From a virus (lineage: Duplodnaviria > Caudoviricetes): a stretch of DNA of 64,000 nucleotides. The translations under genes were made by a program, and so were the position numbers. Below the pieces are notes generated by a model. That model did no database searches and was not told the DNA's origin. It worked only from the letters and a program-made list of their open reading frames with translations. Positions 1,328 to 8,223 of this stretch are shown here, one piece after another. The stretch lies in the IMG/VR virus record IMGVR_UViG_3300047557_002530. The stretch is one strand, 5' to 3'. Each line of letters opens with the position of its first letter. Position 1 is the first letter of the stretch.

Positions 1328-1569
1328 TCGTCCATCTTTGCTTTTAATCCAAGCAATGCCGTAAACAAAGTAAACAAAGCATCATATCCTCTTCTTTCAG
1401 ATTCTTTGCAATCTAAGGGAGGGGAATTTTTTAATCCACCTAGTGCATCTGCTCTTTCCATAGAACCTGGAACCATAAAGTTACAGTTGGCAAAAGTAAC
1501 ACCAACGTATCCAAGTGTTCCTACTACAATAACGACGATTAACTTATCAATTAGTTTTAAGTTTTTCAT
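1324..1569 (-). CDS. Small membrane protein, hypothetical
   Basis: Two hydrophobic segments; overlaps the neighbouring ORF by 4 nt. Confidence 0.55.
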   Translation of the reverse strand: MKNLKLIDKLIVVIVVGTLGYVGVTFANCNFMVPGSMERADALGGLKNSPPLDCKESERRGYDALFTLFTALLGLKAKMDD

Positions 1570-1757
1570 CTTCCTTCTTGTTTATGAATCCAAGTTTTCA
1601 ATTCGTGCAAATATTGCCTAAGTTCATCTGCTTTACGAAGATGCCACGAATCACCACTCTTGAAATACTCTTGAGTGTGATTATCAATTGCTTTTAGAAT
1701 ATTATGTATTGGTGCGTTCCATCGCTCACGCTTCGGAGTATTCCATTCGCGTGGCAT
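1566..1757 (-). CDS. Hypothetical protein
   Basis: RBS (gaggaatt) before ATG; chained with neighbours. Confidence 0.6.
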   Translation of the reverse strand: MPREWNTPKRERWNAPIHNILKAIDNHTQEYFKSGDSWHLRKADELRQYLHELKTWIHKQEGR

Positions 1758-1763
1758 AATTCC

Positions 1764-1877
1764 TCACTTCTTCTTGCCACCATTCTTTGCTTTTTTCGCA
1801 GTCGCATTACCTTGATTTTGTTTGGATTGCTTGCCCCCAGCAGAACCCTTCTTACCTTTGTTTGCAGACTTTGACAC
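1764..1877 (-). CDS. Small Lys/Gly-rich basic peptide (about 37 aa, GTG start)
   Basis: Read manually: (M)SKSANKGKKGSAGGKQSKQNQGNATAKKAKNGGKKK. Confidence 0.45.
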   Translation of the reverse strand: MSKSANKGKKGSAGGKQSKQNQGNATAKKAKNGGKKK

Positions 1878-1956
1878 TGCACCGCCCCATATGATACAAT
1901 GATATTTAGGAAAAACTGTTCCTATTTATACTGTGCCACCTAGGCAATTCGACCTA

Positions 1957-1990
1957 TTGACACCGCTTTCTGGTCGTGCTATCATAAATA
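1957..1990 (+). promoter_or_regulatory. psbA promoter: sigma70-type plus overlapping T4 late-type box
   Basis: TTGACA-17 nt-TATCAT, with CATAAATA at 1983-1990. Confidence 0.7.
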
Positions 1991-2039
1991 GGTAAACAAA
2001 TGTTACGAAACGCTAACGATTCTTAACATTGTTAAACAC

Positions 2040-2140
2040 CCGCTAACCGAGACCTATGGGTGTATAAAAACGTCTCTCATACCCACAGTGGAGGGTGCTG
2101 TGGGGAATAATCGTATCAGTTCGTCCCCCCGAACTTTTAA
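2040..2140 (+). ncRNA. Structured psbA 5' leader, PhotoRC-II-like RNA motif
   Basis: Complementary segments (gagac/gtctc, tatgggt/(a)taccca, ccacag/ctgtgg) directly upstream of a cyanophage psbA, where PhotoRC-II RNAs are known; boundaries approximate. Confidence 0.55.
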
Positions 2141-2157
2141 CTAACTCTCTTAAACAA

Positions 2158-3237
2158 ATGACTGCTACAATTTCACGTCAACAACAATCGAATACTTGGG
2201 AACAATTCTGCAACTGGGTTACTAGCACTGATAACCGTCTCTATGTAGGTTGGTTCGGAGTCCTGATGATTCCAACATTGCTCGCCGCAACAATCTGCTT
2301 CATCATCGCATTTGTCGGTGCTCCCCCTGTAGACATTGATGGAATCCGTGAACCAGTCGCTGGTTCTCTAATGTATGGAAACAACATCATCTCTGGTGCT
2401 GTTATTCCTTCGTCCAACGCGATTGGACTGCACTTCTACCCCATCTGGGAAGCTGCTTCACTTGATGAGTGGCTTTACAACGGCGGACCTTTCCAACTGG
2501 TAGTGTTCCACTTCCTCATCGGCATCTATGCTTATATGGGTCGTGAATGGGAACTCTCATACCGCCTAGGTATGCGTCCTTGGATCTGTGTTGCTTACTC
2601 TGCACCTGTTGCTGCTGCCAGCGCAGTGTTCCTAGTCTATCCTTTCGGTCAAGGTTCTTTCTCTGATGCAATGCCTCTGGGTATCTCTGGTACCTTCAAC
2701 TACATGCTTGTTTTCCAGGCAGAACATAACATCCTGATGCACCCCTTCCACATGCTTGGAGTTGCTGGTGTCTTCGGTGGTTCACTGTTCTCTGCAATGC
2801 ACGGTTCTCTAGTTACTTCCTCACTGGTTCGTGAAACCACCGAGCAAGAGTCGCAGAACTATGGTTACAAGTTCGGTCAAGAAGAAGAGACTTATAACAT
2901 CGTTGCAGCACACGGTTATTTCGGTCGCCTGATCTTCCAATATGCTTCCTTCAATAACTCTCGTTCGCTACACTTCTTCCTTGCTGCTTGGCCTGTTGTC
3001 GGTATCTGGTTCACTGCTCTTGGTGTTAGCACCATGGCCTTTAACTTAAATGGCTTTAATTTCAACCAGTCTCTGCTTGATAGTCAGGGTCGTGTAGTTA
3101 ACACCTGGGCTGATGTTCTTAACCGTGCTGGACTGGGAATGGAAGTGATGCACGAGAGAAATGCACATAACTTTCCTTTGGACCTGGCTGCTGCCGAAGC
3201 AACTCCTGTTGCTCTAACTGCACCTTCTATCGGTTGA
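2158..3237 (+). CDS. psbA: Photosystem II D1 protein
   Basis: Full-length D1 ([10 protein letters not shown]...HNFPLDLA plus C-terminal extension); no intron; real start at 2158, not 2095. Confidence 0.99.
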
Positions 3238-3260
3238 GTTTCGTAAAAACTGAATAATCT

Positions 3261-3301
3261 AAAAGGAGGGACTTGCAAAAGTCCCTTTTTTGCTATATAA
3301 T
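3261..3301 (+). terminator. Intrinsic terminator that also carries a sigma70 promoter for the downstream endonuclease
   Basis: Stem gggactt/aagtccc plus T run; TTGCAA (3273-3278)-17 nt-TATAAT (3296-3301). Confidence 0.65.
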
Positions 3302-3331
3302 AATTGAAGTTAAGAAATCAAAGATTGAATT

Positions 3332-3760
3332 ATGAAAACTTGCAACATTTGTGGAGAAACGAAATCACTTGATGAGTATTATATCAATAATTTTGGATAC
3401 CCTCACGGTAAATGTAAAAAGTGCTATGTTAAAAAACAGCAAGAAAAATATGACCCAATGAAAAAAAGAAACGAAAACTTAAAAAGATGTTATGGAATAA
3501 CACTCCAAGAATATAATGAAATGTTAGATAATCAAAATGGTAAATGTGCCACTTGTGGAACTACTGAACCAGGAGGTAGAAAATCTGGTAGGGGCGGTGG
3601 TGCTGATGTATTTGTAGTAGATCACTGCCACGATACTGGTAAAGTTAGAGGTCTTCTTTGTCATAGTTGTAATAGGGCTATGGGACTATTAGGAGATAAT
3701 GTAAGCGTTATTGAAAGTATGATTAAATACCTTGAGCAGCACGAAATTAATGTCTCATAA
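3332..3760 (+). CDS. Free-standing homing endonuclease, endonuclease VII/HNH family (F-CphI-like)
   Basis: N-terminal CxxC...CxxC; VVDHCHDTGKVRGLLCHSCNRAMG endo VII motif; lies just downstream of psbA, as F-CphI does. Confidence 0.85.
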   Translation: MKTCNICGETKSLDEYYINNFGYPHGKCKKCYVKKQQEKYDPMKKRNENLKRCYGITLQEYNEMLDNQNGKCATCGTTEPGGRKSGRGGGADVFVVDHCHDTGKVRGLLCHSCNRAMGLLGDNVSVIESMIKYLEQHEINVS

Positions 3761-3872
3761 TACTCAACACGAACCTATGCCTAACTGGGTAATCTGGGTA
3801 GGCGTAGGTATGATGGTATTTACGGTTCTTGTTTTTGTCTTATTCACTCTTGGGCAAATTTACTGGGGATAA
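3750..3872 (+). CDS. Small membrane peptide (40 aa)
   Basis: MSHNTQHEPMPNWVIWVGVGMMVFTVLVFVLFTLGQIYWG; one transmembrane segment. Confidence 0.5.
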   Translation: MSHNTQHEPMPNWVIWVGVGMMVFTVLVFVLFTLGQIYWG

Positions 3873-3940
3873 GTGCTAATACTCATTGACTCTTATTATG
3901 AAGTATTGTAAACTAAATATGAGAAATCACATAGGAGGCT

Positions 3941-4087
3941 ATGACTTCTTCAACACTTTCACAACCAATTCAACAAAGGGGGTGGTTTGATGTCCTGGAT
4001 GACTGGCTTAAACGAGATCGCTTTGTATTTGTGGGTTGGTCTGGACTATTACTTTTTCCCACTGCTTATTTGGCCCTTGACTGGTAG
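3941..4087 (+). pseudogene. psbD: Truncated 5' end of psbD (46 homologous codons, then a stop)
   Basis: [48 protein letters not shown]; GGAGG RBS; homology ends at 4078. Confidence 0.92.
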
Positions 4088-4199
4088 GACTGCTGAATGA
4101 CTTTTCTGGGATTGTATCTAATCTTTATTGGTGTGAAGGGATTGTTTAGAGATTTACAGAGATACAGAGAACAAACTGATAATAGGTAAAAATATAAAA

Positions 4200-4256
4200 G
4201 ACACTTTCTAAACTGGAACAGGGGCACTTCGCAGGTGCCCTTTTTGATGGTATAAT
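4200..4256 (+). promoter_or_regulatory. Early-region-type promoter/stem-loop cassette (copy 1)
   Basis: GACAC-N7-ACTGGAAC, hairpin gggcac/gtgccc, TATAAT at 4251; same layout as copies at 54877, 56835, 61331, 63439. Confidence 0.65.
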
Positions 4257-4280
4257 ACTCTCATATACAAAGAGTTTCAA

Positions 4281-4676
4281 ATGCTAAAAACTAAAACTGT
4301 AAAGATAGTAAGTGTGAGTGATTGGGATGACTTTGTAATCCTTATCTATGGAAAGCATTACAGTTTTCAACAACAAGATGGGTGTAAATCAAGAGGAACT
4401 GCTTATTTTACTGTTCCAAATCAATATGATGCGGAAGAGTTTGATAGTGAGGCAACTACAATCCCATTTGAAGTTAATGGTGAAGAAATGGGTGTGAGTT
4501 TTGAAACTTGGTTGAATACAAATTTGGAGGATACTGCTTCACACTTTGAATCTGATTGGGAGAATAAGTTGTTCTGGGAAAGGAATTTTTATCCAGATGT
4601 AAACACAATTGTTTGGGACTTATACAAACGAGGATTGCTTGAAGAAGGTGAATATATGATTGATATTGATTGGTGA
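4281..4676 (+). CDS. Hypothetical protein of early-gene type, inserted in the psbD locus
   Basis: 131-aa acidic ORF behind the promoter cassette. Confidence 0.7.
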   Translation: MLKTKTVKIVSVSDWDDFVILIYGKHYSFQQQDGCKSRGTAYFTVPNQYDAEEFDSEATTIPFEVNGEEMGVSFETWLNTNLEDTASHFESDWENKLFWERNFYPDVNTIVWDLYKRGLLEEGEYMIDIDW

Positions 4677-4737
4677 CTAAAAAGTAAAAATATTCATTTG
4701 TATAAATAATAATGTAGTTAACACAGTAGTAGTAAGA

Positions 4738-5319
4738 ATGAAACATAAGCACCATATTATTCCAAGACATATGGGTGGTAGTGATGACCCATCAAATCTT
4801 ATTGAACTGACTGTGGAAGAACACGCAGAGGCACACAGAAAGTTGTGGGAGCAATATGGTAATATCAAAGATTATTGTGCTTGGAAAGGTTTAGAAGGAA
4901 CTATTGGTAAAGAAGAGATTGTAAGGTTGCTGATGGACCCAACTGGAAGAGTTCATACAGAAGAAACCAAGAAGAAAATGAGTGAGGCACATAAAGGCAA
5001 ACCAAAGCATACACCTGAAAGTAAAGAAAAAATAAGTGAAGCAAGAAAAGGAAAGCCTTTGAGTGAGGAGCATAAAAGAAAAATAGGTGAGGCAGGTTTA
5101 GGTAATAAAAGATGTCTTGGAAATAAACTAACAGAAGAGCACAAAGAAAAACTTTCTAAAAGTATGAAAGGAAATAAAAATGCTTGTGGTCCTCAAAAAG
5201 TTAGTGAAGAAGCAAAGAAAAATAGAAGTGAAGCAACCAAAGAAAGATGGAGAAAATATAGAGAACAAAAAGGATTTGACCCTAACAAACCTATTGATGG
5301 TAGATACTCTAAAATATAG
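4738..5319 (+). CDS. HNH homing endonuclease with NUMOD3 repeats
   Basis: [34 protein letters not shown] core; repeated [12 protein letters not shown]-type motifs; TATAAATA late promoter upstream. Confidence 0.85.
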
Positions 5320-5419
5320 TGCCCGCAAGGGCACCTGCCGAAGGCAGTAAGTATAAATACACTTCCCTTTTTATCCAGTTTCCATTACAATAAATATGTA
5401 AAGTAATGTAAAGGAGGCT

Positions 5420-6484
5420 ATGACTTCTTCTGTTTTACAGACACCCTCCCAATCACAGCGTGGATGGTTTGATGTCCTTGATGATTGGTTGAAAAGGGAC
5501 AGATTTGTGTTCGTAGGTTGGTCTGGCCTACTTTTATTTCCAACAGCATACCTCGCACTTGGTGGGTGGCTTACTGGTATTACATTTATCACTAGTTGGT
5601 ATACACACGGTATTGCTTCAAGTTTTTTAGAAGGTTGTAATTTCTTAACAGCTGCGTTGAGTACCCCAGCAGATGCTCTCGGACATTCCCTTCTACTTCT
5701 CTGGGGTCCTGAGTCTCAAGGGGATTTCATCAGGTGGTGCCAACTTGGGGGACTCTGGACTTTTGTGGCGCTCCACGGATCTTTCTCTCTGATTGGATTC
5801 ATGCTTCGTCAGTTTGAGATTGCTCGTCTTGTAGGCATTCGTCCTTATAATGCTATTGCATTCTCTGGACCCATTGCGGTCTTTGTGAGTGTCTTCCTGA
5901 TGTATCCTCTGGGTCAATCCAGTTGGTTCTTTGCACCATCGTTTGGTGTTGCTGCTATCTTCAGGTTCCTTCTGTTCCTTCAGGGTTTCCACAACTGGAC
6001 CCTCAACCCCTTCCATATGATGGGAGTTGCTGGTATACTGGGTGGAGCACTGCTCTGTGCTATTCACGGAGCAACCGTAGAAAACACACTATTTGAAGAT
6101 GGTGACCAAGCAAATACCTTCAAAGCATTTGAACCGACACAGGAAGAAGAGACCTACTCTATGGTTACTGCTAACAGATTCTGGTCTCAAATCTTCGGTA
6201 TTGCGTTTAGTAATAAGCGTTGGCTTCACTTTTTTATGCTATTTGTTCCTGTTATGGGTTTGTGGACTTCCAGCATCGGTATCATTGGTCTTGCCCTTAA
6301 TCTTCGTGCTTATGATTTTGTAAGTCAGGAGATTCGTGCTGCAGAAGATCCGGAATTTGAGACCTTCGTAACAAAGAACATATTATTGAATGAGGGAATT
6401 CGTGCTTGGATGGCACCTGTAGACCAACCTGGAGCAAACTTTGTATTTCCAGAGGAAGTTTTGCCTCGTGGAAATGCTTTATGA
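5420..6484 (+). CDS. psbD: Photosystem II D2 protein, with recoded 5' and 3' ends
   Basis: Full-length D2 ending [10 protein letters not shown]; GGAGG RBS. Confidence 0.99.
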
Positions 6485-6513
6485 TATAAATAATTCTATC
6501 GTGCGGTAGAATT

Positions 6514-6960
6514 ATGGAAAAGATGGGAATGCTTACCATTCTTGATGAATGGTCTGATAAGGTTCACAGATACTGTAAAGTTCAGTGTGAATGTGGAACT
6601 ATAAAAACAGTTCGCAGATCATCTATGAAACCTGGACAAACAGTATCTTGTGGATGTTATAGACGAGAACTTGATAGAAAGAAGGGGAGAGATCTTCGTT
6701 CACCTATGTGGTCTCGGGCAAAATATAGAGCAAAACAAAAGGGTCTGGATTTTAATATCACAAAAGAAGATATTGTTATTCCAGACACCTGCCCTTTGTT
6801 AGGCACTCCTATGGAATCGCCATCATTAGATCGTATTGATTCTTCCAAAGGATATATCAAAGGTAATGTGTGGGTCATCAGTAATAGAGCAAATACTTTA
6901 AAAAATGATGCTACATTACAAGAACTCAAAACATTAGTTGAAAATCTGGAGAAACTATGA
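6514..6960 (+). CDS. HNH homing endonuclease
   Basis: SLDRIDSSKGYIKGNVWVISNRANTLKN HNH motif; N-terminal CQCECG...SCGC; TATAAATA upstream at about 6485. Confidence 0.85.
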   Translation: MEKMGMLTILDEWSDKVHRYCKVQCECGTIKTVRRSSMKPGQTVSCGCYRRELDRKKGRDLRSPMWSRAKYRAKQKGLDFNITKEDIVIPDTCPLLGTPMESPSLDRIDSSKGYIKGNVWVISNRANTLKNDATLQELKTLVENLEKL

Positions 6961-7103
6961 AAGATACTTCTACAAATCAACTTCCACCAAATCAAAAATA
7001 CATTGGGTGGAAAGAAGTAAATGAAAAAGAATTTGATGAGTTGTTTCCTCCCATCCAAAAGAAAAATCGTGAGGAAGTTCTACCGCGAGGTAATGCACTC
7101 TAA
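6957..7103 (+). pseudogene. 48-codon ORF ending in a displaced copy of the last 10 psbD codons (7071-7103)
   Basis: MKDTSTNQLPP...[14 protein letters not shown]. Confidence 0.75.
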
Positions 7104-7111
7104 AAATAAAT

Positions 7112-7139
7112 AAAAGGAGTTCTCTGAACTCCTTTTTTT
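7112..7139 (+). terminator. Intrinsic terminator (probably the original psbD terminator)
   Basis: aaaaggagttc-tct-gaactcctttt followed by a T run. Confidence 0.75.
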
Positions 7140-7210
7140 ATGCTCCTTATTCTTATTCTTTTTCAACTCTTTGGAATCCTAATGTTTATATTATCTGTTA
7201 TGCAAGACCT

Positions 7211-7330
7211 ATGATAACTTCTACAACACCATATAAATTGGCAGAGATCATTAGAGATACTTGGCCAAACCTTTACAGACCGCCAATAAAGACTTATAAT
7301 CAATCAAAAGCACAAGAAAAGAATGTATGA
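7211..7330 (+). CDS. Small hypothetical protein (39 aa)
   Basis: MITSTTPYKLAEIIRDTWPNLYRPP..., read manually. Confidence 0.45.
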   Translation: MITSTTPYKLAEIIRDTWPNLYRPPIKTYNQSKAQEKNV

Positions 7331-7607
7331 CTATTGGGTGGTGACAGACAAAACCACAGGTAGAGTAATCGCTCATTGCGGGGAAGAGAATGATGCATTG
7401 ATGTTAGTTGGATTTGATAAAGATAAAAGAAATTATCGTAAACAAAAGTTTATTCTGGATCAGGTCATTACAGTAACATCAACAACAGATAAACAACTTC
7501 CTGGTCAATTGGGTTTACCTGCAGCAAAAGAAGAACTTCCTCCTATGGATCTTCAACAACAAGTATGGTTGCCTGAGGGACAGGGAATTCCAGTTAACGC
7601 TAAATAA
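7323..7607 (+). CDS. Hypothetical protein
   Basis: 94-aa ORF in the operon chain. Confidence 0.65.
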   Translation: MYDYWVVTDKTTGRVIAHCGEENDALMLVGFDKDKRNYRKQKFILDQVITVTSTTDKQLPGQLGLPAAKEELPPMDLQQQVWLPEGQGIPVNAK

Positions 7608-7627
7608 CTTTCAGTTTTATAACAATT

Positions 7628-7864
7628 ATGAAATTTACAGTTTATTCAAAAGACGGTTGCCCATATTGCACAAAGGTTCAACAAGTGCTAGAGTTGGCAC
7701 AACTACAATACGTAGTCTACAAATTGAATACTGATTTTACTCGTGATGAGTTTTATGCTGAGTTTGGAGAAGGTTCTACCTTTCCTCAAGTAATTATTAA
7801 TGACAAACACATTGGTGGGTGTTCGGATACCGTTCAATATCTACAGGAGCAAAAATTAGTTTAA
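7628..7864 (+). CDS. Glutaredoxin (NrdC-like)
   Basis: CPYC active site; TFPQVIIND..IGG. Confidence 0.92.
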   Translation: MKFTVYSKDGCPYCTKVQQVLELAQLQYVVYKLNTDFTRDEFYAEFGEGSTFPQVIINDKHIGGCSDTVQYLQEQKLV

Positions 7865-8223
7865 TGAATACGAACATTCACGAAGTTTACAACGATGTAG
7901 AAAAAGCAATTGATTATGCATTCAATGGTCAGTTTGTTTTAAAATTTTATGACTATCTAAAAGTTCGTGGAACAAAAAAAGTAGAAGTCGAACAATTTAT
8001 TGAAAGTTCTACTGCTACTGAAATTAGTAATCTTGTAATGGATTTGGATGATTATCTTGAAGGTGGATCAGATGAGATTCATAAACAACTTCGCGAAGGA
8101 TACGGGCACATTCCAAAACCACAGGCAAGAAAAATAAGAAATTATCTATATGGTATTCTTGAAGATGCCTGGAGATATAATCATGATAAACGACCAGGAA
8201 GAAGAAAGAAGCAAACTAAATAA
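7864..8223 (+). CDS. Conserved cyanophage hypothetical protein
   Basis: ATG at 7864 overlaps the glutaredoxin stop. Confidence 0.7.
   Translation: MNTNIHEVYNDVEKAIDYAFNGQFVLKFYDYLKVRGTKKVEVEQFIESSTATEISNLVMDLDDYLEGGSDEIHKQLREGYGHIPKPQARKIRNYLYGILEDAWRYNHDKRPGRRKKQTK

Follow-up and report, generated by a model that had tools for sequence, protein, structure and literature searches.

In the 64,000-nucleotide stretch of cyanophage DNA analysed here (below, the window, with positions counted from its first letter), psbA is uninterrupted and is followed directly by a free-standing nuclease gene of the F-CphI family, while the stretch of psbA that corresponds to the F-CphI substrate carries a cluster of codon changes, all of them silent. 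We consider it probable that this is a case of intronless homing by an F-CphI-family enzyme, in which the neighbouring psbA would have been made refractory by silent recoding instead of by an intron. Of two recoded patches, the downstream one (“site 2”) has more of our confidence than this, and we are less sure that the upstream one (“site 1”) is a second target. The source is a 92-kb IMG/VR cyanomyophage record, ~43% complete. The window is one of a group: together with dozens of metagenomic relatives, it has an F-CphI-family nuclease beside an intronless psbA with a recoded target. Set beside sensitive and intron-protected alleles, these recoding-protected ones would make up a natural series from which the determinants of recognition by this nuclease family can be deduced.

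Silent codon patches in an intronless psbA

The features of psbA and its leader are:

2024–2118, plus strand: PhotoRC-II RNA motif in the psbA leader (Rfam RF01717, 81.3 bits)
2158–3237, plus strand: psbA (D1), a continuous open reading frame of 359 codons without an intron, from the ORF and its translation
3037–3066, plus strand: patch 1, or site 1, codons 294–303 with its core at codons 299–302, from the codon table
3151–3180, plus strand: patch 2, or site 2, codons 332–341, spanning the position equivalent to the S-PM2 intron (between 3159 and 3160)

Most of psbA is written in a narrow set of codons, as the original prediction had stated: gene-wide, TTC accounts for 23/27 of the codons for its amino acid, AAC for 16/21, CAC for 8/10, and CGT for 9/12. 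The two patches reported to break with this usage, 3037–3060 and 3151–3180, match codons 294–301 and 332–341 letter for letter, and by the codon table every change in them is indeed silent. The core of patch 1 reads GGC TTT AAT TTC in the window, against the common GGT TTC AAC TTC, and the core of patch 2 reads AGA AAT GCA CAT AAC TTT, against the canonical CGY AAY GCT CAC AAC TTC. The sole AGA of the gene (codon 334) and its sole TTA (codon 297) both fall within the patches, as do 3/4 of its TTT, 3/5 of its AAT, and 1/2 of its CAT codons. Counted together, T-ending codons make up 7/10 of the Phe/Asn/His codons within the patches and 4/48 of those elsewhere in psbA (Fisher 1e-4, a post hoc comparison).

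When synonymous codons were shuffled among the psbA positions, a single patch as extreme as the best arose in 4–7% of shuffles (p 0.04–0.07, marginal) and two non-overlapping patches as extreme in 0.06–0.6%. Both patches are real, and rare codons cluster beyond chance (two-patch permutation p ~0.001); a third, equally strong group of rare codons, at codons 34–45 (~2257–2292), had been overlooked. That stretch is generally variable, and its cluster, when tested across the psbA alleles described below, had no association with a nuclease. An Rfam search of positions 1500–8000 returned the PhotoRC-II motif only, with no group I intron and no RNA family over the patches.

The claim that one patch lies at the known intron and F-CphI target region also holds. 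By psbA alignment, the 212-nt introns of S-PM2 (L147) and of locus L004 are inserted between codons 334 and 335, that is, between positions 3159 and 3160 of the window and within patch 2. Rfam assigns both inserts to the group I introns, with 91.8 bits for L004 and 87.8 bits for S-PM2, and an intron at the same position is present in about 30 other loci. The published cleavable substrate of F-CphI is a 60-mer from the psbA of S-BM4 (PMC6083498 Table S3). This 60-mer corresponds to window positions 3129–3188 and its site 2 is fully canonical; the window differs from it at 11/60 positions, all silent, with 8 of the 11 lying within 3157–3180. The stretch concerned includes D1 His332, Glu333, His337, and Asp342, which are ligands of the Mn4CaO5 cluster or close neighbours of it, and a target in this segment fits the habit of homing elements of aiming at the most conserved parts of genes.

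A nuclease cassette between psbA and psbD

Downstream of psbA, the features are:

3256–3945 (approximate), plus strand: nuclease cassette in the psbA–psbD spacer, from homology breaks against nuclease-free relatives
3267–3286, plus strand: hairpin followed by a T run, terminator-like, 3′ of the psbA stop codon
3273–3301, plus strand: TTGCAA-17-TATAAT, which resembles a sigma-70 promoter by consensus alone, upstream of the nuclease ORF
3332–3760, plus strand: free-standing Endo VII-motif homing endonuclease gene, 142 aa, from Pfam PF02945 and the alignment with F-CphI

That a nuclease of the endo VII family follows psbA, as originally predicted, is borne out by Pfam: ORF 3332–3760 matches Endonuclease_7 (PF02945) over residues 48–135 of its 142, with E = 1.5e-23 and 82.9 bits (cutoff 23.6). 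In the alignment with F-CphI, residues C84, C87, D101, H102, R110, D126, and N127 are retained, and D103 is replaced by cysteine, giving DHCH for DHDH. The same replacement is found in four other aligned psbA-linked nucleases, and DHCH is common across the Pfam Endonuclease_7 family too. Mutagenesis of F-CphI has placed C84, D101, H102, D103, and R110 among the catalytically important residues (PMC6083498); of these, the ORF retains C84, D101, H102, and R110, whose mutation abolished the activity of F-CphI. The layout of the ORF, with an N-terminal CxxC...CxxC region that aligns with F-CphI and then the catalytic domain at the C-terminus, is also that of F-CphI, in which DNA binding is N-terminal and catalysis C-terminal, whereas T4 gp49 has its domains the other way round (PMC6083498). 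By these sequence-level tests, ORF 3332–3760 is an intact member of the F-CphI (Endo VII-motif) family. Its specificity is predicted: the ORF is only ~42% identical to F-CphI, with about equal similarity to the Endo VII-type nucleases of T7-like phages, so its target could differ from that of F-CphI.

Homology between the window and nuclease-free relatives (L155, L174, L181, and L067) stops at 3237–3255 and restarts at 3946–3968, and the psbA–psbD spacer of these relatives is only ~65 nt long. Their short, intact spacer shows that the nuclease cassette (~690 bp) is optional. A nuclease stands beside psbA at a minority of loci, roughly 1/8 of the psbA loci in the random sample.

Further downstream, the psbD region of the window consists of a 5′ stump (3941–4087; 93% identical to the psbD start of nuclease-free L181), an HNH/NUMOD3 nuclease (4738–5319), a full psbD (5420–6484), another small ORF (6514–6960), and a duplicated psbD 3′ end (6957–7103). 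The endonuclease cassettes at the two ends of psbD, in the same region of the genome, are likewise selfish nucleases accompanied by an altered segment of a photosystem gene. There, however, the alteration is a replacement gene end with a stump left behind, whereas psbA has no duplication and shows codon changes alone.

Nuclease-linked and nuclease-free psbA alleles

We collected psbA loci from IMG/VR by way of the window nuclease, of a degenerate any-synonymous pattern for a 10-residue peptide (120 loci), and of the D1 protein (80 loci), and later by way of F-CphI and a third nuclease clade. An allele was called nuclease-linked if either strand carried an Endo VII-type gene in the 1.5 kb downstream of psbA. 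Loci gathered in the scan for recoded alleles did not enter the statistics for site 2, since that scan selects on the very allele being counted. A naive per-nucleotide association test gave hits gene-wide (codons 83, 85, 157, 257, 325, and others) and was uninformative, because the nuclease-linked psbA genes are partly one lineage; we therefore relied on a scan for loss of the modal 9-mer, on near-neighbour subsets, on GC3 matching, and on independent pairs. In the scan, the 9-mer commonest among the nuclease-free alleles was taken for each 3-codon window between codons 15 and 343 (329 scan windows), and its frequency compared between two sets of unique alleles, 22 of them nuclease-linked and intronless and 83 nuclease-free.

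The strongest contrast in the gene is at codons 337–339, where CACAACTTC occurs in 0/22 nuclease-linked intronless alleles and 50/83 nuclease-free alleles (p = 5e-8, rank 1/329). Second in rank are codons 299–301, with GGTTTCAAC in 1/22 and 41/83, respectively (p = 5e-5). Next come the overlapping neighbours of these two, all others being at ~3e-4 or above, and the profile rises sharply at two places and dips between them. The original prediction had proposed a sliding-window comparison with psbA genes lacking the nuclease, and the top two scan windows coincide with its two patches. The psbA tail nearest the nuclease gene (the last ~15 codons, 340–353) gave no association signal.

The contrast persists when only alleles that differ from the window by no more than 16% or 20% of nucleotides are counted, and at codons 337–339 it stands at 0/21 against 39/68 among GC3-matched alleles. 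The heptamer CAACTTC, which is found in both canonical sites, is missing from 16/18 nuclease-linked genes and present in at least one copy in 71/93 nuclease-free ones. The psbA alleles are related and recombining, and phylogeny was controlled with a psbA tree built without the two sites. On this tree the presence of the nuclease changes at least 12 times, and 9 well-supported independent pairs are available: for site 2, five of these pairs tie loss of the canonical sequence to the nuclease, none shows the reverse, and 4 are ties (5:0, sign test p ~0.06), the result for site 1 is similar, and 1/19 control windows is as skewed as site 2.

An enlarged, nuclease-ascertained set of alleles, unique over codons 290–344, brings in the intron. 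A fully canonical site 2, meaning CGN at codon 334 together with CACAACTTC, is found in this set as follows:

nuclease-linked, intronless alleles: 1/32
nuclease-linked alleles with the intron between codons 334 and 335: 12/29
nuclease-free alleles: 53/113

The nuclease-linked intronless alleles differ both from the nuclease-free ones (p = 9e-7) and from the nuclease-linked ones with the intron (p = 3e-4). Among the 32, three exceptions retain CACAACTTC. One of them (L087) has both sites canonical, and its nuclease lies 777 nt off, behind another gene; in the other two (L392 and L448), the codon abutting the intron site, 334, is AGR. The intron is nearly always found beside nucleases of the F-CphI clade and nearly never beside those of the window's clade. 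In the clearest case, that of L004 and L035, the nucleases are 98.7% identical over 156 residues, and L004 has the intron flanked by canonical exons (CGT before it, AAT GCA CAC AAC TTC after it), whereas L035 is without an intron and reads AGA AAT GCT CAT AAT TTC. The nuclease of L003 is 94–95% identical to these two and its psbA also lacks the intron; over codons 334–339, the sole difference of this psbA from the S-BM4 substrate is CAC to CAT at codon 337.

Carriers of the nuclease have at least eight non-canonical versions of codons 337–339, which argues for repeated avoidance and not for one inherited haplotype. They also show changes in D1 itself (F300L/I/M, F302Y/L, M331V, and F339Y) that are absent or nearly so from nuclease-free alleles; M331V and F339Y lie in the D1 segment with the Mn4CaO5 ligands. 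At one locus with an intronless psbA and an F-CphI-clade nuclease (L397), the residues at the site are R-N-S-H-Q-F, against R-N-A-H-N-F. The idea put forward originally, that immunity would come from silent recoding in place of an intron, thus finds support in two kinds of allele comparison, the scan and the alternation of intron and recoding.

The recoded allele itself is more widespread than the nuclease. Among 83 unique alleles of the form AGA-AAY-GCN-CAT-AAY-TTT, an Endo VII gene is adjacent in 31, an HNH gene in 7, and neither is present within 1.5 kb in 45, so that the prevalence of nucleases is roughly three times that in the random sample, yet far from exclusive. As regards co-conversion of flanking markers, the patch 2 allele is common to divergent psbA backgrounds, and the association profile has no tract reaching the nuclease gene. 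The original prediction had named the same codons in relatives without the nuclease as evidence against it, and taken literally they do occur there (45/83). We do not regard this as a refutation, since one would expect resistant alleles to persist beyond the nuclease or to forestall it. What is telling, we would argue, is the opposite direction: carriers almost never have a canonical site. Recoded alleles without a nuclease fit persistence after loss of the nuclease, or selection in exposed populations, and neutral polymorphism would look equally like this.

Site 1 presents a more clade-specific picture, its link to the nuclease lying mainly within the window's own nuclease clade. It is non-canonical in 27/27 distinct allele types of that clade, the intron-bearing L004 included, and canonical in S-PM2 and many F-CphI-clade loci; being canonical in S-PM2, it is no target of F-CphI itself. 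Non-silent changes at site 1 are frequent in the window's clade, with F300 replaced by L, I, or M and F302 by Y or L. F300 is altered in 4/18 nuclease-linked alleles of the random sample and in 1/93 others, and that one allele (L185) carries an opposite-strand nuclease. Compared by eye, the two canonical sites are alike at ~11/18 aligned bases (AAC GGT TTC AAC TTC against AAY GCT CAC AAC TTC), a likeness that arises because the peptides are similar, N-G-F-N-F and N-A-H-N-F. Site 1 could accordingly be a look-alike that enzymes of the window's clade recognise as well; most likely, we hypothesise, it is a secondary or alternative recognition site for that clade.

Proposed intronless homing, competing explanations, and related loci

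The proposed course of events is as follows. In a mixed infection, the product of ORF 3332–3760 would cut the canonical psbA of phages without the nuclease, within the stretch for D1 residues 332–341, which is the location of the intron in S-PM2 and many relatives. With the nuclease-bearing genome as the repair template, the nuclease gene would pass into the cut genome together with the linked psbA 3′ end, in other words, intronless homing. The carrier genome would itself need protection, for which some relatives would use an intron splitting the site. The window phage, without an intron, would depend on the 8 silent substitutions in 24 nt (3157–3180) that remove CGY-AAY-GCT-CAC-AAC-TTC, and the second silent patch, 111 nt upstream (codons 295–301), would remove the look-alike TTC-AAC-TTC, which has C-AAC-TTC in common with the main site. 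Both the cutting at site 2 by this enzyme and the resistance of the recoded allele are what we infer from comparing alleles.

A different reading of the same patches is that they are neutral markers of a psbA lineage, or of a co-conversion tract travelling with the nuclease, and confer no resistance. We think this unlikely, even though many synonymous states gene-wide are common to nuclease-linked alleles, AGA AAT GCA CAT AAY TTT CCT TTG occurs in divergent psbA backgrounds and with different nuclease clades, suggesting that it moves as a block, and the phylogeny-controlled test is borderline. A hitch-hiking tract fits poorly with two sharp association peaks that both lie away from the 3′ tail, the part of psbA closest to the nuclease gene, with carriers that have many non-canonical versions and not one haplotype, and with near-identical nucleases that go either with an intron and a canonical site or with no intron and a recoded site; moreover, a site-specific nuclease that is active always requires the allele of its own genome to be refractory. 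It is less probable again that the patches are a recombination mosaic, short segments from AT-rich (Prochlorococcus-phage-like) psbA genes that have nothing to do with the nuclease. CAC AAC TTC is still present in most low-GC3 nuclease-free alleles, although AGA AAT GCA (codons 334–336) is frequent among them; GC3 gives no explanation for a contrast of 0/21 against 39/68 in the same GC3 range; and the association with the nuclease is the strongest of the whole gene. In favour of a mosaic, patch 2 is 92–97% identical between the window and alleles that are 86–89% identical overall.

Two further explanations carry very little weight with us. Selection on the RNA, through mRNA structure, pausing near the Mn-cluster ligands, or CfrI-like antisense pairing, could draw on the S-PM2 antisense RNA CfrI, which overlaps psbA exon 2 and the nuclease gene (annotation; PMC2984593), but an antisense RNA is complementary under any codons and so does not dictate codon choice, and no Rfam family lies over the patches. 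Plain chance, which we put together with RNA selection as very improbable, has on its side the single-patch permutation p of only 0.04–0.07 and the unrelated third rare-codon patch at codons 34–45, yet it leaves the population-wide association unexplained. Least probable of all is that ORF 3332–3760 is the Holliday-junction resolvase of the phage, in the role of T4 gp49, which would need no immunity of a target. It does have the Endo VII catalytic motif and is the sole Endo VII homologue found in the 92-kb record (~43% complete); a resolvase would nevertheless sit oddly with a sporadic distribution (~1/8 of psbA loci in the random sample), with an insertion missing from nuclease-free relatives, with both orientations beside psbA, and with a domain order as in F-CphI and not as in gp49 (PMC6083498).

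Intronless homing with a recoded psbA, the reading we prefer, stands between two known systems. The standard example of collaborative homing is F-CphI with its neighbour psbA, in which the intron shields the genome from the neighbouring free-standing nuclease, and this system is said to have been described in S-PM2 by Zeng, Bonocora, and Shub in 2009. Collaborative homing by F-CphI of S-PM2 was also treated by Fang et al. in 2018 (PMC6083498). The window has in common with it a free-standing Endo VII-motif nuclease directly downstream of psbA, with an N-terminal Cys-rich and a C-terminal catalytic part, and the same psbA stretch, codons 332–341. Unlike S-PM2, with its 212-nt group I intron between canonical exons and its canonical upstream site, the window phage has silent substitutions, no intron, and a recoded upstream site. 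[quoted passage not shown] In the literature searched, psbA-adjacent cyanophage nucleases are described only beside intron-containing psbA (PMC3428280; PMC6083498), and a 2012 paper has all of them adjoining such genes (PMC3428280).

The second system is that of the T-even phages, which resembles the window in having an optional endonuclease gene between conserved genes. Its carrier and sensitive alleles differ by nucleotide polymorphisms, and intronless homing by T-even free-standing endonucleases was reportedly described by Belle et al. in 2002. SegF, SegG, and MobE cut in the neighbouring conserved gene of genomes without the endonuclease, with co-conversion of flanking markers, and target polymorphism in intronless homing is known for these T4 enzymes (PMC2988022). 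The T-even enzymes are of the GIY-YIG or HNH type, whereas that of the window has an Endo VII motif and its predicted target is a host-derived photosynthesis gene. A further difference is that, for near-identical enzymes in natural populations, we find what would be protection by either intron or recoding, from comparative data rather than from crosses. Since protection of the carrier by target polymorphism is already established in the T-even phages, the psbA case is an extension and not a new kind of system.

Our results suggest that part of the patchy codon usage of phage psbA is the footprint of selfish nucleases, and these may occasionally force amino-acid changes in photosystem II. A much wider proposal, which we offer tentatively and regard as possible but rather doubtful, is that psbA-adjacent Endo VII nucleases drive an arms race that reshapes the D1 gene: the two C-AAC-TTC look-alike sites would be recoded repeatedly, conserved residues would be replaced once the silent options are exhausted (F300L/I/M, F302Y/L, M331V, F339Y), and resistant alleles would spread through nuclease-free phages. 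If this were true, much of the synonymous polymorphism in psbA of freshwater and coastal cyanophages would be nuclease-driven, and not a matter of codon bias or host–phage recombination.

Among the isolate genomes searched, the closest psbA is only ~85% identical to that of the window and there is no DNA-level match to the nuclease, so the window has no close cultured relative. A comparable arrangement is found in the cultured phage S-B05 (L457, MK799832.1; host Synechococcus MW02), which has an intronless psbA, a nuclease ORF 57 nt downstream, and then psbD. The ORF product, QCW23048.1 (177286–177729; annotated as “hypothetical protein”), is an Endo VII-type nuclease 44% identical to that of the window. 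Site 2 of S-B05 reads AGG AAC GCA CAC AAT TTC and site 1 reads TTT AAT TTC, both non-canonical. The annotated psbA start of this phage falls 108 nt short of the full alignment.

Other arrangements occur at the 3′ end of psbA. Nucleases of a separate Endo VII-type clade are encoded on the other strand, convergent with psbA and overlapping its last 10–31 nt (L070, L151, L185, and L445–L453); psbA genes linked to this clade mostly have CAT at codon 337, and L448 keeps CAC with AGG at codon 334. At five loci (L075, L058, L260, L305, and L314), an HNH endonuclease gene, not of the Endo VII type, follows psbA at 86–164 nt. One of them, L058, has a canonical site 2 and TTT AAT TTC at site 1, a hint that the upstream site may be what the HNH enzymes target.

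Finally, psbA is interrupted elsewhere along its length at several loci (L011/L012 and, in the F-CphI clade, L383, L387, L395, L398, L400, L421, L426, L430, and L435). The interruptions measure 230–910 nt each, number up to three per gene, and lie at codons 60/61, 88–93, 106/107, 183–187, 214–216, and 231/232. Rfam identifies both interruptions of L011 as group I introns, one with an HNH-like ORF inside.
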